Assembly (NCBI GenBank): GCA_050273025.1
Contig: CP158635.1
Coordinates: forward strand, 19,096,001-19,160,000
Direction: 5' to 3'
Length of the DNA stretch: 64,000 nucleotides
Origin: Cenococcum geophilum
Taxonomy: Eukaryota
Under the pieces are notes generated by a model. The model searched no databases. It saw only the letters and a list, made by a program, of their open reading frames with translations, and had not been told where the DNA came from. This document shows, one piece after another, positions 32,569 to 64,000 of the stretch. How positions within the stretch are numbered: position 1 is the first letter of the stretch; each line of letters begins with the position of its first letter. The position numbers and the translations under genes were made by a program.

Positions 32569-32799
32569 CATAAAGATGGCCAGTCGAAAAGAGCGGCCAG
32601 CCGAACGGGCACGGTGGAGAAAACGGCCTTGTAGACCTCTTGGCAAAGTCCAACAGACCGTTATGCCTCATCTAAATAGGAAGAGTCACGAGACAATGTG
32701 CTTTCTTTCCGTTCTCAGTGATAATCAGCATGCTAAAAACATTTCGCCAATCTCAGCACAGAGGTGGACACACGGTACCAAGCCACAAGCTGCACGGCA

Positions 32800-33510
32800 C
32801 CTTCGGAGAGAGTTGTGTGTGGAGTTTTCTAGCTAATGAATCCTGCGGCTTGGGTAATAGCAAGAGGCATGTAGTCGAGAGCGCACAGGAGTCCCTTCGC
32901 ATCATCTTCATTAAAGTTCCCCTGAAGCTTCTTATGAAGGAGGTCCATTACAAGTTTTTCACCCATCGAGTCGACCGTTATAATGTCTCTAGTATCTCCT
33001 TTTATTTTAAAGGCTACATCCCGGCTCTGAGAAGCGGCAAGGATGGATCCATTTTAAGATCGGGAAGGAATTCCGATAAAAGGAGACAATGTCTTTGATC
33101 GCGCGCTCCGGCTCATCCGAGTCGAATCGTCCTTGGACCAGGCCCTTGATCGTCACACGGTGTCTGCTTCTGGAAGATCCTGTCCGACAGCGATACATGC
33201 GTCAATGCACTCATTAACCGTCATCCGAAGCCGACCAAGCATGACGGCTATAAGACTGGGCTATTTATTAGCCCTAAATCCCATAACGTTAATAATACCA
33301 TTAACTAACCCGCTAGTGCTAGTGCCTCTAAATATATCAAAGTAGTCGCAAGGCTTCGGCGGCGATTCTGGGTCGGCCTTCTCCATTAGCTACCTTAGGA
33401 TCTAAAGGGTTAACAGGCCTTAGACGCCGCTGCCGTTAAGGGCAAGCAGGTGGAGTTTATGCTCAGGTGTGGCTGGGGAATGGATGGGTAGTAAGGCTCA
33501 ATAGAAACAT
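32800..33510 (-). pseudogene. Degraded patatin-like phospholipase / NB-ARC (NLR-like) gene, internally deleted
   Basis: Minus strand reads LLALNGSGV*GL...PKPCDYFDIFRGTSTSG [intron] LIAVMLGRLRMTVNECID (patatin DGGG/GTSTG decayed), then jumps to NGSILAASQSRD...LDYMPLAITQAAGFI (NB-ARC C-terminal part). Contains stops and frameshifts. Confidence 0.82.
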
Positions 33511-33790
33511 GCAGCAGCACAATCACGAACCCACACAGCTGCGGGGTTGTGTTATAGAAAGTGTTGTAGTTCATCTTCGGCTTAAAAAGGCTGAGAATGC
33601 GGGTGCGGCTAATACCTAGCCTACTGGCTGCAGCTGCTAAATGAGAGTGATCTCCTTTACCTTAACAAGCTTAGACTATAGAATTAAATTAGCGGATATA
33701 TATATATATATCCGCAAGTAGATAATTTAAAAGGCATTATTAAGTAGTTATAACAGGTAAGGTAAATAGTTTTGGTGGTGGGCTAAATTA

Positions 33791-35010
33791 CAGTCGCTTC
33801 GGTAAAAGACGATCAAATGCCAGAAACCATGATCAAAAATAGAAATTTGCCGAATCCTCACCTGTTTGAACCCTTTTTCTGTACTCGCGCATGCCACTAC
33901 CCATTACCTTATTATTACCTTATATTTAAAGCCATGGGCAAACCTGCCTGGTTGACTGAACAGAAGTCGATTGTACAAGCTCTAATTAACCTTGGCAACG
34001 ACGATTTCTATATAGAAGTTAAGACCCGCGTTCTTTAACCTACTCTTTGATATTAGAGGGTAAATTTAAGGAGATTTAGCCAGATTAATCCACCGATTAA
34101 GGCGAGTAGTAGGCTGCTGCTACTTACAGATAAGGCTCTAGATGTATAACGTTAGGTATTATTAATATTAATTTATTAACGCGTACCTTAGGGCCTCCTT
34201 AAATACCTCTTATATAGCCCAGACGCCTATTTTAAAGAGATGCTCTAGTTTCTATATAATGAATATAATATAATAGTGGCACAGAGTACGCTATCGGCTA
34301 GATTAAAGCGAAGGAGATAAAGTAGAAAGGTTATAAGGATAATTATATAATAACGCAACCTAGGCCTAAGAGATAACTAGATCGTTTAAACCTATAGCTA
34401 TAGGCGTAATTAGTTTATTTTTATTAATAAATTAGCTTATAATAAAAAGATAATAAATAAGAAGTATAGGTAGGCACCTATTAATAAGCCTACTAAAGGA
34501 ATGTCAGAATTAAAGAGATCTAAAAGATAGAGCTTACTACTAGCGTATACCTAGCAGGGCTATATGCCTAGTTGGTTAATATACTAAGGCTCTATTAACG
34601 GGTTAATATTTATTTAGTAGATAAAGAACGAGGTTTTTACTTATATGTAGCCTTATCTATAGCCTTGTTTAGTTCTAGTAATAGATAATATATTAATCCA
34701 TTATAATAAGGTATATAGTAACTATAAAGGATAGGCGCGCTAACGCTGCTACTTACTTAAATCTAGGAAGTTTAACGCCTCTATAATGCTGCTGGTGTTA
34801 AACTTAAATATCTTCCTCCTTACTTACCCAATTTTAATCCAATTAAGGCCTCTTTTTATAACTTAAAGTAGTGGCTACATACTTATTAATTTAAAGCTAA
34901 ACTATAGAATAACTTTAGCGACTTTTTAAACTATACGGTAGAGTAATAAGGATTTAATAAAAGGGTAAAAGGCTATTTCTTACGGGTAGGAATTAAGCAG
35001 TAGATAAAGG
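33791..35010 (+). mobile_element. Tc1/IS630-type DNA transposon (transposase from ATG 33934), RIP-inactivated; right end not seen
   Basis: TA|CAGTCGC left end; degenerate FIDES, VLVMDNASIH and LEYLPPYSPDFNPIE motifs, with a probable intron at ~34710-34765. Confidence 0.8.
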
Positions 35011-43375: not shown

Positions 43376-45957
43376 TGTCAGGGAGGGCGAGGAGCTTAAG
43401 GCTCCTCGCCACGCTACTGCCGTGGCGACACGTGACGGTAACTTGCCGCACGTAACGGCAACTTGCCACCTATAATGGCAATTTGCCTTATATAGTGACT
43501 ACTTACCTTTATTTCTAATACTGGCAACTCTTCTTTTATAGTTGCTATTTATATATATATATACCGCTTGACTAGCGTAGCAAATATTAATCCTTTTTAC
43601 TTACTATTGCTATTATAATATAAGTCTCGCTATCCTAAAATTTGCCTCTTAGCATATAGTGCTTTCTTACTTAGGAGTTATAGGTAGATATTTTATTCGG
43701 AGGGCCGCTAAGGCGCTAGTAGTAAGCGAGCTAATAGCGATTTTCTATCCCGGGGATAAAAAATCCTAATTAGCTGGGTTAAGTTAGGGTCTATAAAATA
43801 TTATACTTTAAAAAGTCTTGGTAAGAGAATCTAACTAATTAGATAACTTTAACCGCCGGTTAAAGTTCCTAGATATCTTAAGACCTTATATAACTAAGAA
43901 ATTTCTAGGGACTTCCTTTTAACCTAACCTTTAACTTATACACGTAGAGTATTTATGTTAATAAACGTCTCTAGTGCCTTATTTAGGTTCGCCTTTGTTA
44001 TTATATCTACTAGGTTATCTTGGCCACCAACCTATTAAACCTCAAAAAGCTCTTAACGCTTATAGGATTGCTAAAGCACCACAACATCAACTATAAGGCG
44101 CTTCTCCTTTATAGTACTAAGCTTAACTAAATACTTATAAAGGGAATATAAGTCAGTATATACGATTATAGGGATAATAGGAAGTTTAAGTTAATCTATA
44201 ATTATCTTTAGGGTAGTTCTAATTGCAATTACTATATTAACTCCGCTAACTATTCTATATATCTCTAACACTAAAACACTTTGGGTAATATGCTTGCTCT
44301 TAGTTAAGCTCTAATAGATAAGATTGCTATAGATTATAAAATTATTCTCTCTAGTAAATTCGTTTACGATAATAATCTTATATCCTAACTAGGAGCTAAA
44401 ATCTTTATTATTTATAAACAATCTATTAATAAATATAAAGAGCTTAGCGGTAGGAAGATTAATAGGCACGTAGAGTAGTCCCCAATTAAGATAGTTCATT
44501 TGCTAGAAAAGACGCTTATTTAGGGCAAGGACATTATCCTTAGTTAGTTCCTAGTATTAGGCGGCAATAGAAAGATTAAATAAAGCCTTAGGTTAATAGA
44601 TAGAAGCAATATAAGCTCCGCAAGCGCGTTACTCCACGTATCCTTACTTTAAAGAATTAGCGTTAATAACATTAATCTTCTTACCTTAACCCTTCTAGCG
44701 CAAAGCAATAGAATCCTTATTTAGGGAGAGGATGCATCTATTAAAGAGTAATGGTATTATTAAACTAAGCTTTTCTTTTAGCTTTACTATAAGATTTACC
44801 TTCACTAGCTCGTCTTCTTTAAGAGCTAAGAATTAGTTGTCTTCTAAGATAATTATATTATTAGTTTATATACCAACAATTCCAAATAGAGTTCCCGTAG
44901 TTATAATAAGGAAGTAGGGATTAAATATAAAAGTAGTTATTAAAAGCTTCTCTTTATAGTGCTTGCTATAGGTAGCCCACTAGTAAATTCCTACCTCTAT
45001 AATCCTATATAATGGCTTAAGTATAACTATAATTATATCTTCAGGATACTAGTAGCGAATTTACTTTAAAAGGTATGCTAATATTAAGCGCTAAAGGTGC
45101 ATCTCTAATTAGGTATAGGCTTAAGTAATATCTTATAAATAAACCGCTATTCTATTCTTTATTAAGGAGGAAGCTAGCGTAATAATAACTTGCTAACTAG
45201 CTTGTTAAATTATAAAAGACTACGTAAGAATTACCTCCTTACTACTATTATTATAGCCTTAGATAATAAGCCTTAATTTCTTAAATAGGGCGTTAGTAGC
45301 TTTACCCTTAATCTCATTAACTATTCTTAACTTAAAGATGCGAACTCTATTAAACTTAATAGGGTTATACTTCTTAAATTTAAAGACTCCTCTTATAATA
45401 AGACCATCGATCTCCTACTTATTAGATGCTTAGAAAGAAGCTTTTAGAGTTATAATATAACCTTCCTTTTAGAGCTATTTTGCGAGTTTAAAGTTAGCCT
45501 TCTCCTTAGCTGTTATAAAGGCCATTAATAACTTAACTCTATTCTTAATAGCGGTAACAAATTATTCTTTAAAATTAATAAGATATTAGCAATTTCGTGA
45601 TTCCTTTAGGCGACCTCTGCCGCGCCACGGTTATAGCATATCTACTATAATTATATTAGGATTATAGTCGCCTTCTAAAGCATATTAATCGTGGTTCTCT
45701 TCTAAGGTATCTTTTAGGGTATCCTATAAAGGCTCGGAATTGTTATCTTTATAGTAAGGCTTAATAATAGTTAAACGGAATTAAGTAGGTCTGTAAGGCA
45801 TCTAAATAGTATAAGTCTAACCACTAACTATAATAAGTTAGTGTGGGCCTAACTATTCTCCCTTTTTACGCCATACGCGTACCTTAGACTAGAGTGGCAG
45901 ATTAAGCGTAGTTAAGGTATTTAGGCTATTTCTTACTCCTAATGCGTTGTTAACCTA
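43376..45957 (-). mobile_element. Ty1/Copia, sister of 6618-12706, 3' part only (cut at 45957)
   Basis: LTR 43376-43520 (TGTCAG...CTAATA). The internal sequence is colinear with 6826-9166, and homology stops abruptly after TTAACCTA. Confidence 0.88.
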
Positions 45958-46019
45958 CATCGGGAAAATATTCGCAGGATGAGATTTAAGTAGACTTTGT
46001 TTTTCGCGTTTCGTGTAAT

Positions 46020-46370
46020 TAATATGCAATTTAACCAACTTAACACGCAATTGACTAACTTAATATACAATTAACTAACTTAATATATAACTTAACCAAC
46101 TTAATACGCAATTAACTAACTTAATATATAACTTAACCAACTTAATACGCAATTAACTAACTTAATATATAACTTAACTAACTTAATACGCAATTAACTA
46201 ACTTAATATATTTAAAAGTTAAATAATACGCAGTTGACTTACTTAATAACTTTAAAAGCTAACTGCATATTCCTTAATATGCAATTAACTAACTTAAAAT
46301 TTAAATGATACGTAGTTAACTAACTTAATAACTTTAAAAGCTAACTGCACATTCCTTAACATGTAATTAA
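46020..46370. repeat. Subterminal tandem array of ~20/21-bp units (AATTAACTAACTTAATACGC-like)
   Basis: More than ten direct, partly diverged copies starting ~60 bp from the 45958 junction; a 10-bp TCTTATATAA array follows at ~46478-46560. Confidence 0.9.
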
Positions 46371-46580
46371 GGTAATGTAATATATTATTTTAAAGTTATA
46401 TACTAATTGCGCAAATGAATTTTTATTATTTTCTTAGCCTATAGTATGCTAGCTTATAATATATATTAGGATTAAAATAATTTTATATAATCTTATATAA
46501 TTTTATACAATCTTATATAATTTTATATAATCTTATATAGTCCTATATAGTCTTATATAGGTTCTATACTAGCTTAGCTG

Positions 46581-49500
46581 CTTTTACTATTTATCCTGGC
46601 TTCTATATAATAACGCGATATAGGTTCCTTCTTTAAGAAAGTTGTCTAAGTATAGAGTATTATATTGGTCCTAATTAATATAATTATTAATATAGTATAA
46701 ATCTAGATAAGAAGTAGCGGCTAGAATAATATGCGCGCTTTATAGAATAGATGGCATTAAATAAAAGCAACCACCTCTAAGTACTTGCCTAGTATTTACG
46801 CTTAAGCGCGGCCACCTTTTCACCTTAACTATGCCGTGTGTTAGATGCGGTAGTCTATAATTTAATAGCTGAAGTAGCTCTACTATAGCTCTAGTATACT
46901 ATACGTATATACCGTACTTATCTAACCTTTTAATATCTAGAATAGTAATAATTAGCTAAAGCTAGCCTATAAGTCTTCCACCTAACGGTATGCGGCCCTT
47001 TTTAATACGGTTGTTGTTATCCATATACTTTTGGACCTATACATAATTATACCTCCACTGGTTAGAACATTGCCAATCTGGTATATAACGTACTACCTCA
47101 CTAATTTAGGCCTTAAGGTTGGTTATATTTTTTCCGTCTCGTTTCTAATAGTGGATAGATAGATATATTTTAATAAGTAGGCGCTTAACCTTTAAAGGAT
47201 TCTTCTCTTTCTAGTCCATATTGGAGTTCTAGGTATATTCGCCTTATAGTTTTCGCCTATACTCTTAGATAAATACCATAATACCGTCTAGAAACCCTAG
47301 GATTTTGTAATAGTTTGCTATATAAGATATATAAAGCCACGTCTTTAACCTAAAACGCCTTTAGATAAGATCTATTGCCCTATTTATATCTTTTAAAGGC
47401 TACCAAAGCTTTATAACTGCTAAATGCTATATTAGTTAAGTAACCTATACCTCTAGACGCTAGGAAGACTATAGTATAGAATCACTATTTATAAAAGCTA
47501 TTTTGTCTTCTATTGCTAGTACTACTACCCGTCTTAAATTATAAGAGTAGATTTAAGATAGCGAATCCTGTTTATTTATTAAGTTATAAAACGCCTTAAC
47601 AATATAACGGTGTCTAGCTTCGCCATTTACGCTAGTATAGTACTTATCTGCGCATCTGTATAGGTGGATATTTTCCTTAAAATATATAAGGGTATAGAAT
47701 TTTGGTATATTAAAATGGCCCGTATCAGAATCCTTTACCTTTAGACGGAAACTTTAAAATACGCCTTTAAGCATATTAATTTAATATAGGGCGTGGTGTA
47801 TATATTATAGTGTCTCCTTATTATAGGTGCGATACTAAGCTATAATAACAAAGTTGTATACGGCTCTTGTAAAATGCATAGCATATAGTTCCCTAGACGA
47901 TAGTAGTGGGGCTAGTATAGCGACAAGTTAACGAACTATAGCTTTTTATTTATTACCTATCTATTAAGTAACTTTACTAAATAATAGATTATTAAACCGT
48001 TTTAGCCCTATAAAAGCCGGGATTTATCTAAAACGCTAATTAAGCTAAGCCTCTGTAGATATATTTATTGTGGTTGTTTTTATCCCTCTTCTCTTTCTTT
48101 TTAGCTAGACAATATTACCTACTAGTTTCCGTACCTATTTAATAAGTTGTATAACAATACCCTTTAGAAGCTAATATAGAACATCTACTATTATACCCTT
48201 ATAGATATTAAATAGGTAATAGTGCTACGTAAAACATTCTACCGGGTGTACCTAGTTATCTAAAAATGGAAGAATGTTCTCTAGTTGCTAGCGTTTAATC
48301 TATCTTCTCGTCTCCTCATAGGTATATAGCGGGTATTATTTCTCAGTTAAGTTCTTACACTTTAAAGGGGGGACCTAGCATATAGTACAGTGCTATTAGC
48401 TTTTAACACCTATAAGCAGCACTTGTTCTTTATAGTCTACTATTATTCCATATATAATTAGATAATATTATTGCATAAAATTATCCGTATATTAAAGGTC
48501 TATACCGCTTTCTATAAGATGCTTAATTACTATTATATTTTAGTTTATAGAATATAGCGTTAGAATACTAAAGCAGGACTTACGTTTAAGTATAGTTCTT
48601 ATCGCCTTATAATATACTTTACTTTTTATATTATTATCCTTTTCTTTAATAACTGGTATAAAACTAATAAGAATATTTATGGGGGATGTCTATTAGTATT
48701 AAACTTGTCGGTTAAGATTACCAATAGTAAGATATACCGGCTAGGCCAATTTATTGCCATAGTGCATTATTAGCTGGGTTTTATTAACTACTATAAGTAT
48801 AGGAACTACTATAGCACCGCTAGGAACCTTGCCTTGTGTCTTCTACTACTAGTTACTGCTATATAGCTTATTATAGACTTAGTAGTTATCGGCATTATAG
48901 AGTCTCTTTAGTATATATACTAGTGCATCTTTAAAGGGTCAATGGCCAATTAGAAAGGCAATTATATTTATAATATCCTAGTAAAGAATATAGTATTTCC
49001 TCTACTTAGAGCCTTTAATATTTAATTTTACCTTATACTCTAATTAGAGCCATTATTTGTCTTATATGCTAAATAGAATAGTAGTAATTAGTTCCTCCTA
49101 TTAATTTATAGATTGGAAGCTAAGTAGGCTATAAAGTGGGCTAAGGCGGGTGTCTTTAAGTAGTGCGTTAACGTCTCCCTTTATATAGTAAATGTAGTAC
49201 AGCTATATTAAAAAGGCGTAATTAAACTCTAAATAAAAAGGATTGTATAGTATACTTTGGCTATTATTATGTTATTATATAGTAATATCTAAAATTATCT
49301 GGTTAACTTACTATATATTATTATCGGTTTTATATAAAATTGGTTTACCTACCTTTATATTCTTAGTTGCTTTAAATATCTCTACTCTAAGTAATAATAA
49401 TAACAATAGGACGCTTTTTTAATGTGGTATACCATACGGAGGCACTAGGTGGGCATTCTGCTCATATTTTACCGCCACTAGAGCGTACTTATTAGTATCC

Positions 49501-49736
49501 GTATTTATACCGTCTAGTTATAATTATATATTATCTAACTAGTTAGAGTGGTAGAATTAATTGCGAATTATAAGTAGTTGGGCTGTAATAAACGTGCGAG
49601 TGTTATATCTCTCTTTATGTGCTTTTTTATAGACGTATTAATGGCTAGGCAGCTATCTTTTATAGCACTATAGGTGTTAGTAAAGGCCGCTATAACTTTT
49701 AGGGGTATAAAAACACCATAGACAGCTCCGCTGCAT
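46581..49736 (-). pseudogene. Plavaka transposase with N-terminal C2H2 zinc finger, RIP-inactivated
   Basis: Minus-strand motifs MQRSCLWCF..HL.CH, KTQGKVPSGAIVVPILIVVNKTQL..PVYLTIGNL, DYKEQVLL, VDVL..LLKG and GHFNIPKF match hallmark Plavaka motifs as I recall them. Confidence 0.85.
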
Positions 49737-51370
49737 TATCGCTAATTATATATTAAATAATGTGGTATTATTTCTAGGCGTAAAGAATGCGTATTATGGT
49801 ATTAACGGTTAATTACTAGTATTTAATCTGAGTGGCTTAGCTTTATAGCTGCTAAGAGTATACCTCTTATTTTCTCGCCAAAACTAGTTATACTAAAGCG
49901 TAAGTATAACTAGCTTAACACCGAGTTTAAGGACTTAAGAGTCTAAGGTAATTAAACTAGACGCTAAAGCGTAAGTGTAACTAGCTTAATATTAAGCTTA
50001 ATACTAAGTTTAAAGACTTAAAAGAGTCTAAAGTAGCTAAACTGTAAACTAAAGACTTAATAGTACCTAAAAAACCTTTATCCGTCTAAATAATAATATA
50101 TAGTATTCTTAGGCGATAGCTATAGGACTATAGCTATAGCGAAGATATTATTTACTACTGATGTTATAGAGCCTAATGATGTTAGTTATCCGGACCTGCG
50201 ATTCCGTTATTTCTATATAAGCCGTAGTAAGAAAAAAGGGAGGATTAAGGGTAGTGCTAGTTAAGTTAAGATAACTAAATAAGTTAGTATTTAGAACTAT
50301 AATATCCGGTCTTAGGTATATAGAGTTCTAACTAATGTCTAACTTAAGCTGCCGCCTAAAAGTTTTATATTCGTTGTTAGGGTAACGCTAGAGGGTTAGG
50401 CCGGATAATAGGTATTAGCAATAATATAGATAATTTAAAGCCCGCGAAGTAACTAAATAGAAAGCCTGTGTTTTATAGGCTAACTGCTTATCTTTAACGG
50501 CTTTTAAAAGTTTATTTCTAGAATTCCTTTTAATACCTCCGGTTTCCTATTAAATAGATATATTAGCACGAGCCTATATACTACTAGGGTACGGAGAGCT
50601 AAAATATAGTTAGAGCTCTTTAAATAATTTGGCAGAAAAGAATGGGTTATTTAGGTTAGTCTATAGATTGGCTAGCTTAACCTTAACATCCTACCCTAGC
50701 TTATAAAGATTAGGGCCATCTCTACCCGGTATACTACCGTTAATCTATATATTAGTATCTCCCTTATTTGTAGCAGCTAAAGAAGCTTTAGGTATTTAGT
50801 CTCTAGAAGGTATTATAATACGGCTTTTAAGAGAGCCTACTCCGCGCTAGGGCACCAGACGCTATATTATAGGTAGAGCTTATAGTAGTTATATAAGGCG
50901 GGATATATTTCTAGGCAGTATATATTTAGAGAAATTGAGGCTAAGGTAAGCTTAACGTAGCTATGTTTTTGAAAAGAAATTAAGGCTGAGCTAAGCTTAA
51001 CGTAGTTATGTTTTTGAAGATAAAGAGGCTGTAGTATCGGTTTAGGCGGCTATAGAAGTTTAAAAGATTAAGTAAATAATAGTAGGAAATAGAAGAAAAA
51101 GGCGTATAAATGAGAGTACGGTATTATAGGGCTAGAGTAACAATAGCTATGTTATAGATAGCTTAATATATAATTTGGACTACGGGACCTATATATAAAT
51201 AAGTCTAGCGAATATCTTTAATATAAGGCGTAGTAGCTATAAGTGGGATCTAGGATACTAGTTTTAGGTTGCCTGTGTAGTAGATATAACAGCTTACCTA
51301 AAAAAAGTTACTTTATTAGTGATATAGCTTAAAAATAGGTTATATTTTGGGTAAAAGGGTATCCTAAAGC

Positions 51371-51691
51371 CTTATCTTACGCTTATGGGATAAAATACTA
51401 TATTATATTTCACTTTATTTTATACAATCTTAGACTTTTTATAATGTCTTAGATTATCCCCCTACCTCTCTTTACTATACACTTTACCTTATCTTACGCT
51501 TATAGGATAAAATACTATATTATATTTTACTTTTTTTTGTATAATTTTAGACCTTTTATAATATCTTAAATTATCCCCCTATCTCTCCCTACTATGCATT
51601 TTATCTTACCTTATACTTATAGAATAAAATACTATATTATATTTCACTTTTTCGTACAATCTTGGATATTTTTTAATATCTTAGATTGTCC
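51371..51691. repeat. 117-bp tandem repeat, about 2.7 copies
   Basis: Units start at 51371, 51488 and 51605 (CTTATCTTACGCTTATGGGATAAAATACTATATTATATTTCAC...). Confidence 0.88.
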
Positions 51692-52119
51692 TAAACTTGT
51701 TTCCCTACCTCTTTAGAGCTACTTTACTAACTAGTTATAATATAAAGAATAGAATTATTAGCTCTCTTATTATTATTTACTTAGTTAGTAGCGCAAATCT
51801 TATATCTTATCTCGCTATATACCTTTTGTTCCGTTTCTTACTTTAAGTCTTATATTTTATTTTACTGCCTATATTAAAGCTTATATTTTATCCTACTTCT
51901 TATATTAAGACTTACATTCCGTTCTATTTCTTATATTGCTCTTAAATTGCTCTTATTAGTATTTGCTATTATTTTAAGTTAATATTATTAGCACACCTTC
52001 TTATTATAACTGTTAGGATTGTCTTATTATATTATTGCTAATTATTTAATATATTATCCGCTCTACTGTTTTTATAAGTCACTCTATACTATTCTATATT
52101 AAGCTTTTACCCGCTTATA

Positions 52120-55100
52120 AATATATAGGGTCCCTAACTATAATAGTGGCGCTATATCTAGAATCTAGTTGGTACTTAACTACTATAACTAATAAGAACT
52201 TATTGTAAATAAGTGGTCCAAAGCTACAGTAAGGACTTATAATTAACGAAAAAATATATAGCAAAATCCTTTAATACTATGCTAGCGAAATTAATAAAGC
52301 GTCTAGTAGTAGGTTGCTAATATCTAGACCTATATAAAATAGAGTTAAGCGTACAGTCTTTAACCTTCTTAATACTAAGTATAGGTACGTGTTTAAGAGA
52401 TCCGATCTACCATTAGAGTTTAAAGCTTTTACTATTACCGCCAAAAAATTTATATAGCGATACGTAACGACTAACAGATATAGAGGTGTAGAGGTTATAA
52501 TAGCTAATACTATTTAAAAGCGTAGCGCCTTGTTTTTTAGAAAGTAGTTTATTAACTTATCTAGATTAAGGGTAACCTCCGAGGCTGCCTAGGTGCTTAG
52601 TAATCTATCTATTAAAGCCCTATAATAGCTAAATACTATACCTATACTATTTTATAAAATAAGCTTTACTATATATAGTTACTTAGATAAAACGCCATTT
52701 ACTAGGGCCCCTATTCTATACGGATTTATATTAAAAACTAAGTATAAGTATCTATTGTCCAATTTTCTAGAGAAAATTAATGTATATTACTGTGGATATA
52801 ATAAGCTACAGGCCGCGATAAGTAAAAACTTCTTGGCGGATAAATATAGGGATAGCTGGACTATAGTAGATCTAACTACTGGTATACTAATTCTTAACTA
52901 TATAAACCTAGTATTTATGGTGCTTTCTGTAAAAAAGGCCGGACTTAATATAATTATAATTAGAGTTAAAGATCCTAATCGGATTATAAAGCGTAAGAGA
53001 CTTTATAATTTATAAGATTGTATAATATTATATAGAGTTGTTTAACGTACATTTATAGGTATAAGATTTAATAAGGGTAATTCTAAGTCTAACTCTAACC
53101 CTAATATTATACGACTGGTGCTAACTAGGAGAAGAATAAACACACTTGCCCTAGATTAAAGTAGTTATAAGCAGTTAACCCTAGAGTCTACGCTACCTAT
53201 ACCTAAGCAGTTAAATCTAAAGCCTATATTAACCCTAAAGTCTACGCCACCTATACCTACTAATATATTATTAGCTATATAGCCGGCTATAATTAAAACT
53301 GCTTATAGCTAGACCTATAGTAGTAAAGACTAGCCCCTACTAGATAAATTAAAGCTCTTAAAAGGTGTGGATCTAGACAAAGTATAAACATTTAAGATAA
53401 TACTATGGGATAAAATAAAAGGATAATATAATAAATGGCTAAAGTCTAATTGCAAAATATTTATTAATATATTATTTAAGGATATGAATAATAACCCTAA
53501 CCTAATTTGTATTGGGGAAATTAATCTTAACCGCATATAGGAGCGCCGCCACTTTAACGCCTTAATTAACCCTATTTCGACTAATAAGGAACCGGAAGAT
53601 AAGCACGAGGATAAAATTAAGGAGGTTAATTAGAAAGTTAATTACCTAAAGGACGTACGAGAAGTATATATTAACCTAATATTATAGGTAAAGGTGCTAT
53701 AGTTCCTCTTATTTCCGTTAACTATTTATAACACTCTTTAAGACGTAACCTTCTACTTATACGGTATAAAAAAGGGTAAAGCTATATAGATATATTAGCT
53801 GCTTAGTATTACCTATACTCTTCTTAATTATATAACCCTAGGTAGGACCTTTTTTGCGGATATAATGGGTTTAGGTAAGATGCTTTAAATGCTTTTAATC
53901 TGGTATACTAGTATATTAATAACTAAGATTAACCTTAACTAGCTTAATTAGAAAAATTAAAAAGGTAGAGATAAAAGTCTCTACTTTACCCCTAGTATAG
54001 ATAAACACCTATAGCCGCCTAACGCCTAATACCTGAGTTAAATAGATAGTATGCTATAGTGCTGTTGTGTTAAGGGAAGTATTACTAGAAAATTTCTTAA
54101 CTGGCTAGTAGGACTAACTATATACATTACTAAATAGAATTTACTGCCCTAAGCGGTTAAAGACATTAAATTATGGTTTAAGACCTTAAAACTAAATAAT
54201 TTTATTCTTAAAGGTAAACTATAAGTCCGCGTGCGTTATACGGCTTTTATTAGGTCTAGTATAAAGAAGTATAATTTTACGGATAAAGATAGGGATATTC
54301 TTAAACCTATAAAATATAAAGGAGAAGGCGAAGTGGTCTAGTAGAAAATGGACCCAAGATTAGCTTTATATCTTATAATTACAACCTTATAAACTTAGGC
54401 AATAACTTAGACCGCTTAGAAATAGTATAAACCCATTTTTAATCTCTATAGAGACGGTGGTCCTCGTTATATTATTAGTGGGATTTTTACTAATAAGTTT
54501 TATATAGATAGGTTAGAGATAGGTTATCTAATAAAAATTGCTAAATAAGTGTATAATAATTAAGCAGTATTTCCTTACTTTTAACACCCGGGCCGGTCTT
54601 ATAAGGACGGTAATAGTAAAATAACCTACTATACCTCTTAACCTTTAGTAGTGTTTACTTCCGGTATACTAACTAGTGAAGGTTTTACAAGTCTAATTCC
54701 CGCCTTAGAAATTTTTAGGGCCCCTAATTAGACGGATTCCCTAAATATAAAATTAATTAATAATTATATTGTTAAAGCGTTAATTAAATATAAAAAGCTA
54801 GGAGTAGCTAATTACTCTTTTCTTCTAAATAAGGTTATTATAGGCTTTAAAAAATGCTCCTCTTTAATTATAAAGGTCTTAATTATACGCAAAATAGGGG
54901 AAAACCAATGGTTTAATAGGAGGGTAATTAATAAGCTACTACTAGTTGTCTACTAAGACTGCTATATAATGAACGATTCAATATTTAAACCGTATATTAA
55001 AAAGCTTTGGTGTGGAGCATCCCTAGAAGCTTTTAAATAGCTAAATAAAGCTTTTAGATATTAAAAAGCTAAAGGAAGAAAAGGAGAAGAACCCGTCTTT

Positions 55101-55940
55101 AATATAGATTAATTTCTAGAGGGAGCCGGTCGCTTATTAAAAAATTTTGCTATCTTTTTAGGCCTGGCTAAGGTAGGAGATAAGTGATAGGATATATAGT
55201 AGAAGGATAAAATAAAAGTTGGAATAAAGTTAAGGTAGACAGTTAATAAGTTCTACAGCGAAAAATAGGATAAACCTTTAGATGAGAATCTACTTTGGAA
55301 GAATTAGAGCATAATTACTAACTCTGGGAAACTAAATAGAATTATAAAATACGTTAATAAAGTACTTAAAAGGAATCCTAATAAGAGACTACTATTTAGT
55401 AGTTATAAACTAGCGGTATATACGCTATTACGCCTTATAAGTTAGCTATTAGACTAGTGGTAAACTGTTACTAATAATATAATATAGTATTTCTATAAAA
55501 GGCTCAGCCAGTCTAAATATTTAACTGTTTACTAGATAGAGTTTAGGATATCCCTAAAAGACTAGGAGGATATTTGTGAAGCGTTTTGTATTTTAATAGG
55601 CGGTCCTTACTAGAATAACGTGGTCTAGTTTCTTATTATTAACTAAAGAGTTAGAGGAGAGGGTCTAAATTTGGTCTCTACGCATAGAGTCTATCTACTT
55701 AAACTGGCGATAATAGTAGATATAGAGGTGTAAGTATTTGGCCGAGCTGCTAGATCTGGACAGCTAATGCTAGTAGTTACTATATTAATAATGTATAGTA
55801 TAGATAAGTGGAACCTAATTAATATAGTTATATTAGCGAGGCGTATAATAACTAAAAGGATAACAATTGATAAGTTTTATGAAGTATTTAAAGCCTAACC
55901 TATTTAGCAGGCTAATAATAATATAATGGAAATAGTGTAG
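52120..55940 (+). pseudogene. SNF2-family (SF2) helicase/ATPase with a long N-terminal extension, RIP-inactivated
   Basis: FFADIMGLGKML (motif I, ~53850), FADEFH-like motif II (~54485), TSGTP-like motif III (~54660), and GEGLNLVSTHRVYLL...FGRAARSGQ (motifs V/VI, ~55650-55765). Probable intron at ~55436-55487. Ends are approximate. Confidence 0.83.
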
Positions 55941-57103
55941 CTAGTATAGTTGGAGTAGCGATCCACTGTAATAAGAGTATATCTTAGTATAATGTATATA
56001 TATATAGATAATATATAACTATTTAATATTTTATAATATATTATCTTAGTGTTAACTACCTTATAACTAACTAAACCTTAGAAAGTTTAAATTTTGTTTA
56101 GATTAATATTACTCTGGCTACTAACTACCTTAATACCTATTAAGTAATTTAGCCTATAACCCTACTAACTCTTATTCCTAATATACATTAATAATTCCTA
56201 TTAAGGTGTATTCTTTTTACTAATAGACTATATATATATACTATCTTTATTATTCCAAAAGCCTAATTGGTATATAAGAGGATTATCCCATAACTAAAGC
56301 TCCCTCTATATCTTAAATTATTACAAGAAGTAAGACGGCATTAAAATAGATAAACTAATGTTTATAACTACCGCTTTCATCTACTAATTATATAGTTATA
56401 GCGTATATACATAGTTATCTGCTATAAGGGGGAACCGTTAGTAGTAGTTTTTGAGATCTTATTATCCTATATAAAACTTTCACTACTACCTATAACGTCT
56501 TAACGACTACTAGCTCCTACCTATACGCTATGCGACGTCTATACAAAATCCCTAACAGTAAAGAAAAGCGTACCCTGATTATTCTATTTAATCTACTTTT
56601 TACCTTTTTCTATTAGTGTAAGATATTAAATTAACCTATAATATAATGCTAACTAGAATAATTAGTAAACTTAGCTCTGCTAGATAAATATACTTAATTA
56701 TAAGGACTAAAACCCTATTACTATTAAGCTTATTATACTATAAAATAAAAGGGCTATTATTAATATTGGTACGTTTTAAAGGTACTTTATTAGCCAGCAC
56801 TAATAGATATAAGTTAATGGACTACCTACTACTTTGTATTTAATGGTTTTAAGAATAATAGGGCAAAATATGCTGTTATTTATCGTGCTCTTACTAACTA
56901 TAATATTTAATTTATTATAGGCCAGAAATTTAACCTTAAAGATAAGCAAAAGGTAGACTTTTGGGATATGTTAGATATATTACGGACGAAACCTTTATAT
57001 AACCTACCCGTATTAGAACACCTTAATAGCAGTACTATACTATTGGATTTTGCTATTAGGTATTAGTAACTAAGCAATCTTAAATCTTTCCCTTATTACC
57101 TAG

Positions 57104-57335
57104 CCCTAAGCCTTATTATATTACTAAGACTTATTATATTATTGAGTTTTATTGTATTACTGCTAAGCCTTATTACGTTACTAAGTCTTATTATATTGTC
57201 GAGTCTTATTACGTTGCTAAGCCTTATTACGTCGCTAAGCCTTATTGTATCATCAAGTCTTATTACATTACCGAGTCTCATTGCATCGCCGTTAAGCCTT
57301 ATTACGTCATTAAGCCCTATTACATCGCCGCCGAG
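57104..57335. repeat. 18/21-bp tandem repeat, probably the coding repeat (GDVxRL)n of a RIPed minus-strand ORF (~57080-58350)
   Basis: Units such as TAAGCCTTATTACGTCGC; unit lengths are multiples of 3. Confidence 0.75.
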
Positions 57336-58409
57336 CCTCCTAGCTAGATTGAGTAATTGGACGTCGCGCATTTAACTCCTAGGCGTGGCGGGTTTAATTC
57401 CTACTTGTCGCGCATTAAAAATATTAAAAATATTAAAAAAGAAGGTCGTTTCCTATTAAATTAGGCGTTAGTAAGGCTCCAAATTAAGCTCGTATTTTTG
57501 TATATATCCCATAACGCCTAAAGTCATATATTTAACGAAATCTTAGCACTATATACTAAGCATATTGGCTCTTCTACGTTAAGTTTTAATTACGTTGGGC
57601 TAGCTCTAAATTATAGTAAGAGGCAGAATGTACTATACTACTACACTATAAGGACTTTGGAATGTAACTTTATAAATTTAACTAAATTATAACCCCTTCC
57701 TAAACCTCACAATTAAACTAGATCTTTAGGGAGAGATCCCTACATCTTAGGGAACGTTTGGTTATAACTTTAGATTAAATCTAAAGGCCGTAGAATATAT
57801 CTAAGCTGAAGCTTAAATCTAATTCTAACGCGATTGTTTAATTAATCTGGCGACTTTTTAATCTAAAAGCTCCTCTAAATCGGCAAGCGCGTTAAATTCG
57901 TAAGCTATACCGTATATAGAATCTAAATTTATAAATATAGGGTATCTCTATTACTGTAGTGGCTACTATAGTAACGGGGGCGCTATATTTTAGTAAGTAG
58001 TTAATCTGCTATGTCTCTGCGACTGTAGTGGCGAGGCACCTTAAGTTTAACACCACGCTAAGTATTACAACTTTCCTGTAGTGATTGAGCAACCTTAAAC
58101 TAAAGCGATTATAGAACTTACTATACCACTGCGCTATAAAGGCCCTTAGTTATAGTCTTATGAATTTAATTAAAATATAAATACCTTCCTAAATTTAACG
58201 ATTGAATATTTTTACGTGTAATACTATGCTAAGGATTATAATATAGATTGCTTAGATATAGCTTTACTATAATATAACGGCTCTACGCCAATTAATTAAT
58301 CTATAAGAGATTTAGGTAGTAAAATTACTACTAAGAGTTACTGCCTAGATCCTGGTTAATAAATACCTATAACTATAATTTTAGTAAATGGTAAAAAGTA
58401 TATAGTAGT

Positions 58410-58706
58410 ACTAAGATAATAGTAGGACAATATAAGACAATAATAGGATAATATAATATAATAGTAGGACAATGATAGGATAATATAATATAATGGTAGG
58501 ATAATAATAGGACAATGTTAGAACAATATAATATAATAGTAGGGCGATAATAGGACAATATAATATAATGGCAGGACAATGTAATACAATGGTAGGATAA
58601 TATAATACAATGGTAGGATAATATAATACAATAGCAGGACAATGTGATATAATGGTAGGACAATATAGGACAATATAGGACAATAGTAGGACAATATAAG
58701 ACAATA
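58410..58706. repeat. 10/20-bp tandem array (GTAGGACAATATAATATAAT-like)
   Basis: Directly visible periodicity; it produces the low-complexity ORFs at 58373-58704. Confidence 0.9.
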
Positions 58707-59418
58707 TGAAAAAATAAAATATAAGATATAAAAAGAGGGAGCCCTAACGCTTTCTCTTCTTCCTACTTTTACGGCCCTAGCGCCTAATATAGTGTAATAT
58801 CGTCTATCCGTATAAGTGATAGTATTAAGACGGTTAGAAGTACTAGGAAATTTTATAAAGTATATATTACTTTAAGTAATATACCTAAATAACTAGTTTA
58901 GTGTATAGTTTGTATAATATATAATAATAACAGGGGGATCTTCTATTGTTATATTACTAAGTAATACCTTTAAAGCCACGTTTTTCTAGTGCCTGGAGGT
59001 CTTTAGATTATTATAAGACGCTTTATAAGAACTTATTTTAGTATAGTGGCTTAAGATTTGTTAAGCCCTATAGTAGTTATATCTAACTAGTCTTTAAGAA
59101 TATAAATATTCTTAAATAAGGAAGTATCCTTAATAGCTATAATTAAACTAAGATCTGTATAAGGCTTATTTATAATATATTATAGTACTTTAATATTCTA
59201 TTAAACTTAAACAAGGTGTTCTAATAACGGGAATCTATTAATAGTTAGATATCTTCTTATTTAGAAAATATTATATACTTACGGCTCTCTTATTAGCTTT
59301 TATAATACTAATATAGTATAGTAACTAACTTTATAAAATCTAGTTTATTCCTTAACTATTGTTTATAATATGGATAAGTCGATCTTAATATCTTTAGGTC
59401 TTAAAGAATAAGTTAACC

Positions 59419-62400
59419 TATTCGTACTAACTTAATAGCACGAGTGAGTTGTATCCACGGGCACGAAATACATGTAGTATCGTATGCTTGTTTGGATGGT
59501 GACTGTCGATTGTATGAAGCAGACTACGTGGTCTATATACTAATGCACCTCCCCCCTAATTAGTTAGTGCTTTATAAGTGCACCAGGCGCGTAAGCAAGT
59601 GGTTAGTGCACTAAACGCGTAAACGCGTACCTGGTATACCGAACGCGTAAGCACGCGGTTGGTATAACAGGTGCTGTAATTATATACTAGCGGTACTTAA
59701 AAAATGAAACTACCTATATACAGCCTCCGTAATTGCTTTAATAAAACCATAAAACACAAAGGAAAATATATAGGAAATCTCCCCCGAGGTGCCGTCTAGG
59801 CTGCCTTCTAAATGGTGCTTTAAGCTGGCCGTAAGTCCTGCTTACGGTCCGTAAAATAAACTATACGGCCTTTTAACGGGCCGTAAATGCACCGTACGGC
59901 CTTCCGACGGGCCGTAGCTAAACTGTAAATACTCTATTAGTCTCGCTCTACCCATTCTATAACCTTTAGGTTAAGCTTGTTTGTGTTAATTAGGGTTTTA
60001 AGAGCTTAATACGGCTTTGCCTTAGTTATAGCGTCTGCTAGGTTGTTTCCGCTACTGATCTATTTAACCTCCGTAATCTCACGTCGTTTGTAGGCCTAAT
60101 GTAAGCATATTAGGTTGACTATGAGCCTCTTCTCTTATATTGTACCTAGTTTAACTAGGCAGTTATAAAGGGACTTTAAATTAATATATAAAACTAGGGG
60201 TAACTGCTCTAGTTATACAATCTTTTGGACCGTTAATTTAATTGCGGCTACTATATTAAATCTATAAGCTAGTGTATATAGTTTAAAAGCTAGTACACTA
60301 CGGGTTACTCGTTTACACTTAATTAAAGACTAGTATAGTATATTTGCGTCCTAATTATGGTCCGTAAGTATAATTATAAAGCCGATTTATAATAATAGGT
60401 CTTTATTATTAGTAAAGGAGGCGTTTGTAAATGCTAGTAAGCTAAGGGAACTTAGGTCTAGTGGTATGAAAGTAAGTCCCCTTACTGTATTGTTAATTTG
60501 CTACTAAAGGCGCTTATTAAGCTACTTAATATTTTCTTTTTATAGATCTACTGCCTAGGCCGCAAAGGATAAGTTATAGGCAGATTTAGGTTGGCAGACT
60601 ATAGCAATATAGGCGCCTCTTGCACGCTATATAGCGTATTAGTCCTTTATATTTACGGTCTTATGGGTTTCTCCGCGGGAACTGGTAAGGTCCGTAGGCT
60701 TTACTATAATAAGCTTTAGGTTTTAAGCTTGGCGTTTCTAGGTTAGCTAGATTAAGTTGCCCTTTTATATAATTAAGCCTCTATTAAACTTAATTAGAGT
60801 CTACTTAGTTAACTACTTTTGTGGCTTTGCTAGGAACTTAGCTTCTTGTAGTTTAGTCTCTTTAGCGTCCGCAAATATCCGGTCTACTAAAAAGAGGGTA
60901 TTATCTGTTTAGAGTCTAATAATACTAAGGCCGTTTAATGGGCTGTATAGGAGGCAGAGGTTGTAGGTCGACTATTCCATTTTAAGTTTACTAATGTGGT
61001 GCTAGTGGTATGTCTTAAACTAGTGGTTTCTAGCTTCTAGTACTCCGTAAAGGGGTTTTATAACCCGTAAAATTATTCCTAGTTATAGGTTAAGTTTATA
61101 GGGTGGTCGTATAAAGATATCCCTACTTAGGTAGGTGTTGGACTGCACGTAGGCTTATAAGATATCCCGTAGGTAAAGAGCTATGGGTTTACTTTACTAT
61201 AGTCCGGGCGTAAGTATAAGTATAATCCGTTAACTAACTCGTTAAATTGTAGGTAATTATATAAGGACTAAGTCCTTTCCCTAGTTGTTATAAGCTTATA
61301 TAATAAGCCTTAACTTTTTAAAGGCTTTATTAGTACTAGGGTGCTTAATTTTATTAATAAAGCGTAAGTTAAATATACAGACGCCTTACGGGACGTCTTT
61401 CTCCGTTATAATTGTAAAGACGCCCTTTTTAAGTAGTCCGTTAATCTCTTTACGTCGTAAGTCCGTAAAAGGGGTTTTCTATACTAGAACTAATATATCT
61501 GTAGGCGGAGATTGCCTTACGGATATTCCTGTGGAGGTTAGGTAGTTCTCTATTACGGGGTTCTTGGTTATAAGGTGCTTTTAGGGGCGTCCTTAGCCAC
61601 GCTTTATAGTAGGTTTAGTAGGTTTAGTGGGTTTCTAGGGGACTTCTAGGGTAGGTAAGGGTGCTTCCAGTTCGTCTAATTCGGCAGTTGCTTTTAGTTT
61701 ATCTAGTTCAACGGTTACTTCTAGTTCGTCTAGCTTAACGTCATGGGTGTTTTTGGGCCGAAAGTAGGGTTTTATGGACGTGCTCCTAAAGCTAGTCGGT
61801 CTGCTAGGGAGTTATATATAGCACGTTTTGTTTTCTACGGCTAGTAAACGGTAAGGTCCCGTCTAGTTGCCGCTTTTACGCCATACAAGGACTTTAGAAT
61901 TAAGCGGGAGGTTATAAACTAAGGTTGTGTCTAGTCCGTTGCGGTAATATAGGGCGCTATTAACTGCTTATTTGGCCCGTAGTTTAACTATTTCGGCTAT
62001 TGCCTTCCGTATTATAGCTACTTATTCCGTAATAGATGGGGCAGAAGGGCCTAGGTTGCTTATCCTTAGGTAGGCTCCATAGACTAAAAGGGTGGGTACT
62101 AGTCCGTCCAGGCTAGTGGTGTTATTAATGGCTTTTACGGCTATCTATAGAGCCAGTTCCTTTTAGATATCTTTATATTCGTCCGTAATAATCTAGTAAG
62201 CTCTCTATAAGGCTAGGTAAGCTTGCTTAATAAGCCTAATGGACTAATGCGCTTTAACTAGAACAGCTTTTATTAATATAGCTATGGCCGTAGTATACTA
62301 CTAGAATTCCTTACTAATAAAGTTTCTACTAGCGTTATAGGTAATATACTTAGGGGGTCTAATATATGTGTTAATCCAGCAGGTCCGTAAAATGTCCTAA

Positions 62401-64000
62401 GTATATTTTATAGATATATTTTGTAACCAACGGGCGGCTTAATAGTGGGTTGCCTTATCAATTATATATAATACTAGGCTGCCGTTAATGTATATAATGT
62501 CTACGTATACTAAGTAGTTAAAGTTAAGGTCCTTATAAAGGGTGAACTTAAATTAGCCTAGGGAACGTCTGTATTTCTGGCAAAAGGAGCAGTATTTAGT
62601 TAGGTAGTTAATTGCCTTCCTATTAATGTTGTCGTGTCTAGAGCGTTTAAGGACTCTATATAGCTTTTCGGCTAATAGGTGGCCAAAATGGCGGTGTAGA
62701 CGGTGGATCTCTGTACTGGTAAGGTAGCACGGGTTATAGTTAAAAGATTCCTAAATATAGGTCCGTAAAGTCTCTCCCTATATAAGGAACGGGTATCCAA
62801 ATCGTCGTGTAATTAGTAGGGTAATATGCTTACTTCTTAGGGCAGTTGTGGGGCCGATCAAGGTGTCCGTAATATTGTTATAGTAAACCTATAACCTGTT
62901 TATATCCGCAAGGTAAAGTAAGAAAGGGGTATCTGCTTTTACTATATGGAAGTTAACTAGGCCAATTAGGGTCTTAACTGTAACTAATTTAATTAATGCA
63001 GTTAAGCTAATGCCGAATTGGACGTTTACGGCCCCAGTTTACGTAATATTAATATCCGTATTATTATTTACGGTGGTCCTATATGCAAGGTATTATCCGT
63101 AGCCTATAGTAGACTTCTTAGAGGCGCCTATATCGATTATAACACTATAGAATTCCTTGGGGGTATAGCGTTCTGTAGTAATATATGTAAATAGGTCCTA
63201 CTTATAATCTATAACGTCCGTAATGGGGGTACTTACGGAATAGTTTTTGGGCGTAACTGAGTGTATAAAGGAACGGTCGGCTAATACGGTCGTAATATTA
63301 AAGGCTTAGCTATCCGTAAAAGGTCTAAAAGTAGTTAGAAACATCTCTGGGGTCTCCTATTCCTAGTTATCTAGGTTAAAGTTAATTATAAGGGCTTCTA
63401 TTAACTCATTAGGGGGCTCCTCTTCTTCCTCTCCTTTATATTCTAAGATAAACTGGCTAATCTGTTTATTAAATCTCTTCTTAGACCTGTTATGTTCTTC
63501 TTAGGTATACCTTATAGACTAACATTCTTCCTTACCACACATAAAGCATTTCTGGCTTATTTATTTATAGGGGTATGCTTTTATACGGGGGTTGCTGCAG
63601 GGGTTATAGGTAGGACTTGGTTAGTACAGGTGCTGCTAGTAGTAGCGGCGGTCTGTAAAGTAGACGTCTAAGTCTATTTACGGATATTAAATATCTATAA
63701 TAAAGGCTTAAGTGCTGCCTGGTGGGTTTAAGACTTTGTAGGTTATAATAGAGGAGCGTAGATTATTAATAAGGCCAGCTAAGGTATTTACAGGCTTGTA
63801 ATAGGCGTACTTGTAGGGCTCTACTTTCTAGCAGGCCGTAATAAGTTTATTATATAGAAAGTCGTCTATTTAAAGCTTAGCGTTAAGGCCGTACTATAGG
63901 TGCTAGAGGTCTTTAATAAGAATTTGCAGGCACTCTATAGTCAATTTTTTAGTGTTCTTATTAATTACGGTCCGTAGCTTAGTTGTATTCTATTAGGTAA
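59419..64000 (-). mobile_element. Ty1/Copia retrotransposon, third divergent family, running off the window
   Basis: Minus-strand gag knuckle (KCFMCGKEEC), protease (IIIDIGASK), integrase (LHRHFGH), RT (KPLYGVLEARNH) and RNase H ending near 59937. An LTR-like segment starts at 59419; its inner boundary is ambiguous (59547 or 59669). Confidence 0.87.

Follow-up and report, generated by a model that had tools for sequence, protein, structure and literature searches.

The genome of Cenococcum geophilum contains, within a 64,000-nt stretch of contig CP158635.1 (positions 19,096,001 to 19,160,000, hereafter the window), a block at 45958-59418 in which the remains of a transposase gene lie beside those of genes for putative motor proteins. 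The question that this locus raises is whether the block belongs to a single transposon that carries these genes as its own cargo. A first-pass annotation, made from the letters of the window, had taken it for a cargo-carrying transposon of more than 13 kb encoding its own ATPase, and this reading is supported here by the linkage of the ATPase gene to the transposase gene in 20 of 27 related loci. With a probability of roughly 0.78, the block is the transposase-side 13.46 kb of a dead, large and multi-copy Plavaka transposon, mutated by repeat-induced point mutation (RIP), with a PlavakaB-type terminus and a cargo of motor genes. It has a transposase gene on the minus strand, a divergent and probably intron-bearing gene on the plus strand for an SNF2-like ATPase of helicase superfamily 2 (SF2), and a convergent gene on the minus strand with a ZNFX1 domain and a P-loop. 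The features that carry this reading are as follows, LTR standing for long terminal repeat.

45958-45987, plus strand: transposase-side terminus, 5'-CATCGGGAAAATATTCGCAGGATGAGATTT, unique in the window, with the same end in 32 of 36 related loci
46019-46559, plus strand: subterminal tandem repeats, with 20/41/82-bp units at 46019-46370 and 10/20-bp units at 46477-46559 (Tandem Repeats Finder)
46590-49736, minus strand: Plavaka transposase gene, dead, with many stops (PF18759 and tblastn of un-mutated relatives)
52275-56036, plus strand: SNF2-like ATPase gene, dead (lowest stop density in one frame; 15-copy alignment)
53016-55436, plus strand: predicted core exon of the SNF2-like gene, N-lobe
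53853-53885, plus strand: motif I (Walker A), FADIMGLGKML in the window and FLADTMGLGKTLQ in an intact relative
55536-56036, plus strand: predicted C-lobe exon of the SNF2-like gene, the frame of which closes at 56036
55656-55763, plus strand: motifs V and VI, GEGLNLV ... FGRAARSGQ (hhalign on RapA 563-606, which are RapA motifs V-VI, E 0.026)
58979-59418, minus strand: remains of the third gene, cut by an LTR insertion (PF25396 in related locus L020, and a P-loop)

Transposase gene and terminus

When read through its stops, the minus strand at nt 48153-49040 matches the Pfam family PF18759 with an E-value of 2.1e-32 and 113.1 bits, above the Pfam cut-off of 26.3. An un-mutated relative of 629 aa (P0001), named 'Plavaka transposase' in its source, is 69% identical to 48440-46590 by tblastn. 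The family match and the name of this relative identify the element as a Plavaka, and the minus-strand Plavaka transposase proposed earlier is confirmed by the former. A more distant relative (P0003) aligns with 49145-46590 by tblastn, and the gene starts at 49736 with the zinc-finger-like MQRSCLWC.

Metagenome contigs were scanned with P0001, giving 77 loci, and 36 of these are copies of the window's element, being RIP-like with a guanine plus cytosine (GC) content of 0.25-0.43 and having 80-90% DNA identity to the window. The block in the window opens with CATCGGGAAAATATTCGC, which has a single occurrence there, while 32 of the 36 related loci end with ...GCGAATATTTTCCCGATG, the reverse complement of the first block bases, and are followed by unrelated flanks. 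The common terminus of these loci reads ...TTTTCCCGATG. Because 32 of 36 copies stop at the same point with different flanks, the terminus is considered to be real, and the locus thus shows the sharp common boundary, the many copies and the differing flanks of a DNA transposon (36 contigs, 32 with the terminus). The first two flank bases are TA in 11 of the 32 copies and the flank in the window ends with CTA, which may be a target preference or merely the AT-rich background left by RIP.

The subterminal tandem repeats of the first-pass annotation were recovered with Tandem Repeats Finder at 46019-46370. Their 20-mer has six occurrences, with one orientation throughout, against an expectation of 0.05, and the same repeats adjoin the terminus in 25 related loci. 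They are putative transposase-binding sites.

Copies of the element and their mutation

Twenty-seven of the 36 loci reach far enough upstream of the transposase to be informative, and 20 of them possess the SNF2-like core, colinear and at a constant spacing. Among the other seven, L020 has an internal deletion, yet the 3' end of its SNF2-like gene is retained. Two loci (L009, L012) have about 6 kb of unmatched sequence, after which a colinear match resumes only to 51.9-52.1 kb, where the locus ends; homology ends at 52824 in L037, 53200 in L039, 48323 in L014 and 49312 in L022. In window coordinates, the transposase is covered by 30-37 copies and the SNF2-like gene by 19-25, with 6-15 copies at 56.5-57.5 kb and 2 from 58 kb onward. 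The SNF2-like gene is therefore multi-copy and linked to Plavaka, being colinear with it in the 20 loci mentioned, and the first-pass reading survives the test of copy number and linkage that came with it.

The 3048-nt SNF2-like core (53016-56063) aligns without gaps in 15 copies with 37-68 stops per copy, the 1016 codons of the window having 65. The alignment has 1019 variable columns, 954 of which are pure transitions, 508 of these in a CpA/TpG context. Such an excess of transitions in a gapless core is the trace expected where RIP has struck a sequence present in many copies. Throughout the block the TpA/ApT index is 1.4-1.7 and the (CpA+TpG)/(ApC+GpT) index 0.38-0.57, the values for the GC-rich region at 30.5-33.5 kb being 0.86 and 1.19, respectively. 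Taken part by part, these indices agree with the earlier claim that RIP damage is uniform across the block. Judged by its sequence, the window copy is inert in this genome.

The SNF2-like ATPase gene

Between about 52.0 and 56.6 kb, stops are least dense in one frame of the plus strand (in phase with 51903), and remains of helicase motifs are found in the window at 53853 (I), 54489 (II), 54654 (III), 55386 (IV), 55656 (V) and 55737 (VI). A profile from seven copies retrieved P0052, an un-mutated relative of 691 aa that is called 'SNF2-related domain' in its source and has an 804-aa form (P0055) in its cluster. Both are 65% identical to the window gene and read FLADTMGLGKTLQ, ILADEFH and TSGTP; the copies and their consensus, the latter made for reading only, have GGEGLNL and FGRAARSGQ. 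Motifs I, II (DExH), III, V and VI are present in order and in SNF2-typical forms, the forms that we take to be typical of SNF2 proteins among SF2 groups being LADxMGLGKT, DExH, SGTP, GGxGLNL and the QxxGRxxRxGQ-like FGRAARSGQ.

The motif I stretch is the part matched by PF00176, by the ZorD models and by RapA residues 158-194. The ZorD SNF2 models of PADLOC gave six matches (best E-value 1.1e-5), and matches were also found to DpdE and to a PHROG 'DNA helicase' (E-value 0.0048). In a feature search of a protein atlas the ten best matches with a Pfam family belong to one family/clan (SNF2-rel_dom/ResIII/DEAD), with a best score of 0.94 and 173 features in common. An hhalign comparison with Escherichia coli RapA gave one match per lobe in the right register, with E-values of 0.0093 for motif I and 0.026 for motifs V-VI. 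No Pfam SNF2 match was present in the read-through plus frames 51901-56702 of the window. An exhaustive phmmer search with the RIP-damaged 1200-aa read-through resulted in 45 matches of 41-161 aa, every one a fragment and no full-length protein among them, and a MAFFT alignment of these remained unused with many fragments misplaced. A homologue search with P0052 in the 380-1210 aa range returned its self-match only; outside this range there may be full-length gene models, as well as a C-lobe exon spared by mutation.

Of the divergently oriented plus-strand SNF2 ATPase described in the first-pass annotation, the long frame and the ordered motifs thus stand, while none of the RIP-damaged copies, taken singly, matches the Pfam SNF2 or Helicase_C families, and the seven-copy profile matched neither a family nor a solved structure. 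The protein is filed here as SNF2-like, short of a proven member of SNF2, and the term 'chromatin-remodelling-type' is a family label for a putative activity.

Every intact gene model stops at ...LLRLVS, at the point where GTAAGT begins (55437), which is followed by TACTAAT and AG. An in-frame intron of 51 or 99 nt would drop four stops common to all copies (core codons 810, 816, 824 and 840), and an intron starting at 55437 is probable. The sequence at 52275-53012 may be an upstream exon. All 22 other copies covering 53016-53045 depart there from the frame of the window, where a tandem repeat of 20 bp lies, indicating a small indel private to the window; there may also be a second intron around this position, as CTAAC and AG follow.

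The third gene and the limits of the block

Retrotransposons lie on both sides of the block.

43911-45957, plus strand: LTR retrotransposon copy B (a putative Copia, as it was called in the first-pass annotation), the target cut by the element, 87.5% identical to 7120-9166
59419-64000, plus strand: LTR retrotransposon copy C, inserted in the element, with its LTR at 59419-59688; it exits the window

The third gene was identified with the aid of L020, in which the ZNFX1 domain PF25396 lies at 2763-3014 (41.7 bits, cut-off 27; E-value 1.2e-10). Position 2983 of L020 corresponds to 59419 in the window, which retains just the last codons of the domain (about 59388-59418). A P-loop, PPGTRKT (from GPPGTGKT), is situated at 58979-58999 on the minus strand, about 130 codons beyond the ZNFX1 domain. 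PDB searches with pieces of this gene gave no identification. The minus-strand remnants reported earlier at about 58750-59418 do exist, and can be re-read from L020 as a P-loop gene with a ZNFX1 domain.

From 59419 the sequence runs TATTCGTACTAAC..., and seven further copies in five loci have a TGTTCGTACTAAC-like start with different 5' flanks; a complete 6.1-kb retrotransposon with two such LTRs is present in L024. As these eight LTR starts align with differing flanks, 59419 is considered to be the first LTR base, its TG mutated to TA. Given that L020 lacks the insertion and encodes the ZNFX1 domain across the junction, the element must be longer than 13.46 kb, with its third gene split by the retrotransposon. 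Position 59418 was rejected as the end of the element: an LTR starts there, no inverted copy of the terminus is found and the L020 domain spans the point. The end proposed in the first-pass annotation is thus exact as a coordinate, but it marks an LTR insertion and not a transposon end, and its size of more than 13 kb holds as a lower bound, the element being interrupted at 59418/59419 with L020 continuing past.

On the near side, self-comparison of the window aligns copy B with 7120-9166 over 2047 bp (87.5% identity), the alignment stopping exactly at 45957. The uninterrupted sister retrotransposon reads ...TTAACCTA up to 9166 and GTATATAGCG from 9167. The insertion is placed at 45957/45958 because the alignment of copy B stops there while the sister copy runs on, in agreement with the earlier claim that a retrotransposon is cut at 45957. 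The empty site in the sister copy is TTAACCTA followed directly by GTATATAG. A 9-mer, GTTAACCTA, occurs just ahead of both junctions (45949-45957 and 59412-59420); this was judged a coincidence, since L020 has GTTAACCT as element sequence.

Un-mutated and distant relatives

The clusters of the SNF2-like proteins P0052/P0053 and of the transposases P0001/P0058 both have longest contigs of 21,121 and 20,152 bp, which suggests that two un-mutated contigs bear both genes. More distant are L048 and L049, a near-identical pair of un-mutated contigs recovered from separate samples, the transposase of which shares 37-38% identity with P0001. Upstream of this transposase there is an open frame of 608 aa which matches P0055 (tblastn E-value 4.8e-9, 21% identity over 616 aa), the two having GxGKT, DEFH, SGTP and a Cys-rich insert in common, and a C-lobe-like stretch is found in a separate frame. 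Relative to the transposase, the SNF2-like gene is on the same strand in L048/L049 and on the opposite strand in the window. That a homologue so diverged is still beside a Plavaka transposase argues for long retention and not for a recent accident. Apart from this match of P0055 with L048/L049, no homologue of other parts of the element was found in the distant loci L032-L077, which are mostly short contigs.

The Cys-rich insert (CPS...C.C) follows motif I in P0055 (residues about 330-350) and in the L048 frame (L048:3662-5485), is kept at 21% identity and may be a metal-binding insertion. A tandem repeat at L048:5982-6516, with PKCP/SCQNVL as its translation, separates the SNF2-like gene from the transposase, recalling the place of a 117-bp array in the window. 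Four further loci from four metagenomes (L043-L046) are Plavaka relatives of 45% identity with an open transposase frame of 1080 aa (L043:2440-5679). A convergent open frame of 614 aa (L043:5997-7838) resembles none of the element's other genes, and its PDB sequence search gave no match. PDB searches with two open reading frames (ORFs) of the distant loci gave no identification.

Alternative explanations

A number of points weigh against the block being part of one Plavaka transposon with motor genes of the types named. Every related copy comes from metagenome contigs, continuity past 57.8 kb is backed by two copies only (the window and L020), and the presence of both intact genes on a single contig is deduced from the equal lengths of the longest contigs. 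Forward-oriented copies of the terminus or of the subterminal repeat are absent from the window and from every related locus, so that in most copies the two ends must lie over about 12.4 kb apart; the inverted terminus that the first-pass annotation proposed to look for was likewise not found inside the window or the related loci, nor was a target-site duplication. With the far terminus unseen, a pair of terminal inverted repeats and a target-site duplication are putative features of the element. With the third gene, there is no match to AAA_11 or AAA_12 in six frames of 56401-59702, in L020:2403-6502 or in 12 translations of four copies, and the sole match of its P-loop is to the McrB Walker A at an E-value of about 0.1; the rest of its helicase core may be hidden by RIP damage. 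As for the SNF2-like gene, P0052 scores 21.2 bits with PF00176, under the cut-off of 24.9 (E-value 1.8e-4; profile positions 17-91 only), and Helicase_C (PF00271) is found in none of 15 copies, with an E-value of 0.058 for a fragment (P0029). There is no PDB sequence match for the window ORF, the 7-copy profile, P0052 or the L048 ORF. The hhalign probabilities with RapA are just 2-4% (1.9% for motifs V-VI), and AlphaFold models were unusable, with a predicted local distance difference test score of 36 for the single sequence and of 28 for an 11-row alignment.

The low Pfam score and the lack of Helicase_C and PDB matches would also fit a plus-strand ORF which is helicase-like and of SF2 but not SNF2, e.g., a lineage-specific DEAH/ResIII-type ATPase, as would the confinement of sequence matches to the motif I region and the mixture of SNF2-rel_dom with ResIII and DEAD among the atlas neighbours. 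However, the motifs have the forms assumed above to be SNF2-typical, the source name of P0052 is 'SNF2-related domain' and every named match is of SNF2 type, so that this explanation is regarded as unlikely.

It is also conceivable that the block is a composite repeat, formed when a short Plavaka proper landed in some other mobile element or duplicated host segment with the SNF2-like and ZNFX1-domain genes, the block being copied thereafter. The limits of the unit are open with no far terminus found, two internal segments are found in both orientations and there are two structural classes, indicating rearrangement within the block, and nested insertions are common in the related contigs. Nevertheless, no second terminus is present in any locus up to 12.4 kb inside the first, the spacing from terminus to SNF2 core is identical in 20 of the 27 informative loci, and an SNF2-like homologue beside a distant Plavaka transposase would be unexpected from a chance landing. 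A composite origin is thus thought to be quite improbable. Very unlikely too is a passive passenger, i.e., a host fragment captured by transduplication and of no role for the element, despite the passive capture of TET/JBP genes by DNA transposons of this clade reported by Kojima (2025; PMC12730594) and a predicted intron of spliceosomal type, as in a host gene: un-mutated copies keep open frames of 691-804 aa, the linkage of a 21% identical homologue to a 37-38% identical transposase implies long retention, and no host-like homologue was found at 380-1210 aa, with a representative search giving short fragments only.

Interior segments and surrounding sequence

The single transposon preferred here also contains the following repeats and segments.

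49893-50547: 655-bp segment, in the opposite orientation in eight loci (blastn: L002, L009, L015, L019, L020, L024, L030, L037)
51370-51691: 117-bp tandem array of 2.8 copies (Tandem Repeats Finder, 85% matches), kept in related loci
57106-57271: 18/54-bp tandem repeats between the two helicase-type genes (Tandem Repeats Finder)
58412-58707: 21-bp tandem array of 14 copies (Tandem Repeats Finder), present in L020 too

The 117-bp array, already noted in the first-pass annotation and found again at these coordinates, sits between the divergent transposase and SNF2-like genes. At the edge of the 655-bp segment a 73-bp repeat (49890-50054) has from one to about five copies among the loci, and the segment, which lies between transposase and array, could be an invertible or recombining one. 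The element can be divided into two structural classes, one of which is longer by about 378 bases at the position equivalent to 56067. In nine loci of the other class (L004, L006, L007, L008, L011, L017, L021, L027, L029), the first 70 bases match 59258-59332 inverted, about 220 bases past a match to 57773. This suggests that the helicase-side segment is inverted between the classes.

Two of the ORFs proposed earlier were not borne out. At the Ser-rich minus-strand ORF of 49800-50900, each of the three minus frames is still broken by stops when about 29 copies are combined in a consensus, and the plus-strand remnant at 56600-57070 has no ORF of at least 90 aa and no family match. Neither the window nor five further copies (L020, L006, L007, L029, L015) yielded an ORF or a family match at 56.1-57.8 kb, the long frames of this region running through tandem repeats.

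The window is AT-rich, with a GC content of about 0.30 apart from 30-34 kb, and nested repeats are visible in its self-comparison. The island at 30000-34000 has a GC content of 0.48-0.50 and normal RIP indices, is surrounded by RIP-mutated repeats and is probably a surviving host gene.

Proposed mechanism

The element jumped into LTR retrotransposon B and was later itself split by retrotransposon C, with its far part now beyond the window. Its transposase may bind the CATCG... repeat at the terminus together with the 20/41-bp subterminal repeats, and then cut and paste the whole unit. The two putative motor proteins would be the products of accessory genes retained for their benefit to the element. 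By analogy with what has been proposed for TET/JBP and PAG genes in other Plavaka elements, it is tentatively suggested that they might provide access to the element's own chromatin or protect it, or blunt host silencing.

ZNFX1-type helicases include Hrr1 of Schizosaccharomyces pombe and SAD-3 of Neurospora, and the cellular relatives of a gene of this type act in RNA silencing. A wider proposal, which must be regarded as doubtful, is that a Plavaka lineage has carried a motor module since before its sublineages split, with an orphan SNF2-like ATPase to which a gene of the ZNFX1/Hrr1/SAD-3 type was added in this branch. Such a module might open or protect the chromatin of the element, or jam the RNA- and repeat-based silencing of the host, and un-mutated copies of about 20 kb, probably mobile, would be present in environmental fungi.

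To our knowledge, accessory genes are rare in eukaryotic cut-and-paste transposons, and those that we know of (TET/JBP, the red-algal PAG genes and VANC) all suggest control by a transposon of its own epigenetic state. If the proposal is true, an SNF2-type motor and a ZNFX1-type gene would be a new kind of tool for counter-silencing or chromatin access, which the un-mutated copies in public metagenome data make directly testable. Such elements would also account for part of the repeat load in RIP-active fungal genomes.

Comparison with known systems

The closest described elements are those of PlavakaB, known from Agaricomycotina, which have CATCA..TGATG termini and target-site duplications of 2-3 bp (Kojima, 2025; PMC12730594). 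Ends printed in the supplement of that paper include CATCAGCAAAA..., CATCGGGGCAAA... and CATCAGCAAAAT, and a TET-carrying family, PlavakaB-1_GyCo, has a consensus given as >24 kb (PMC12730594). The element in the window is similar in its transposase family (PF18759), its large size and its cargo of accessory genes. Its near end, CATCG..., has a CATC[A/G]G..AAA start and fits printed ends such as CATCGGGGCAAA. It differs in that the cargo described for PlavakaB is a TET/JBP dioxygenase, whereas here it is an SNF2-like ATPase and a P-loop gene with a ZNFX1 domain; the described families are from mushrooms, and the window copy lies in RIP-mutated DNA and has its near end only. Among the frames scanned (plus strand at 51901-56702, minus strand at 46401-51400, all six at 56401-59702) none gave a TET/JBP match, although RIP blunts such searches.

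Plavaka elements of the red alga Bostrychia are 17-19 kb in size and have three accessory genes (10.1101/2025.02.11.637652). These genes, PAG1-3, encode an adenine methylase with SET and a ParB-like protein with a 2-oxoglutarate oxygenase, and are proposed to modify the chromatin or DNA of the element itself (10.1101/2025.02.11.637652). The likeness to the window element consists of the Plavaka lineage, the large size, the multiple accessory genes and the tandem arrays adjoining an accessory gene. However, the PAG families are different, and no PAG-type domain match was found in the window frames scanned. VANDAL transposons, mentioned in the same report, carry the anti-silencing protein VANC (10.1101/2025.02.11.637652). 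The likeness here would be conceptual only, that of an accessory protein acting on the silencing of its own element, as the protein families are unrelated.

Like the SNF2 ATPases (PF00176 with PF00271, RapA and ZorD of Zorya), the window gene has motifs I, Ia, II (DEFH), III (SGTP), IV, V (GGEGLNL) and VI in order, and a long insert between its lobes. Unlike them, its family is below the Pfam cut-off, has no Helicase_C match and possesses the Cys-rich insert after motif I; no chromatin-reading domain was found, nor any close homologue outside the element family in the searches made. The third gene resembles the ZNFX1-type helicases, such as human ZNFX1, in having PF25396 followed about 130 codons on by a GPPGTGKT-type P-loop. 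It differs in being transposon-borne and dead, with no AAA_11/AAA_12 and no NFX1 or RZ zinc fingers detected here.

Plavaka elements with this transposase family, this type of terminus, a large size and accessory genes as cargo are already known, and no description of a cargo of SNF2-like and ZNFX1-domain genes was found in the literature searched. New here are this cargo set, its multi-copy linkage to the transposase, the un-mutated relatives, the distant linkage in L048/L049 and the third gene.

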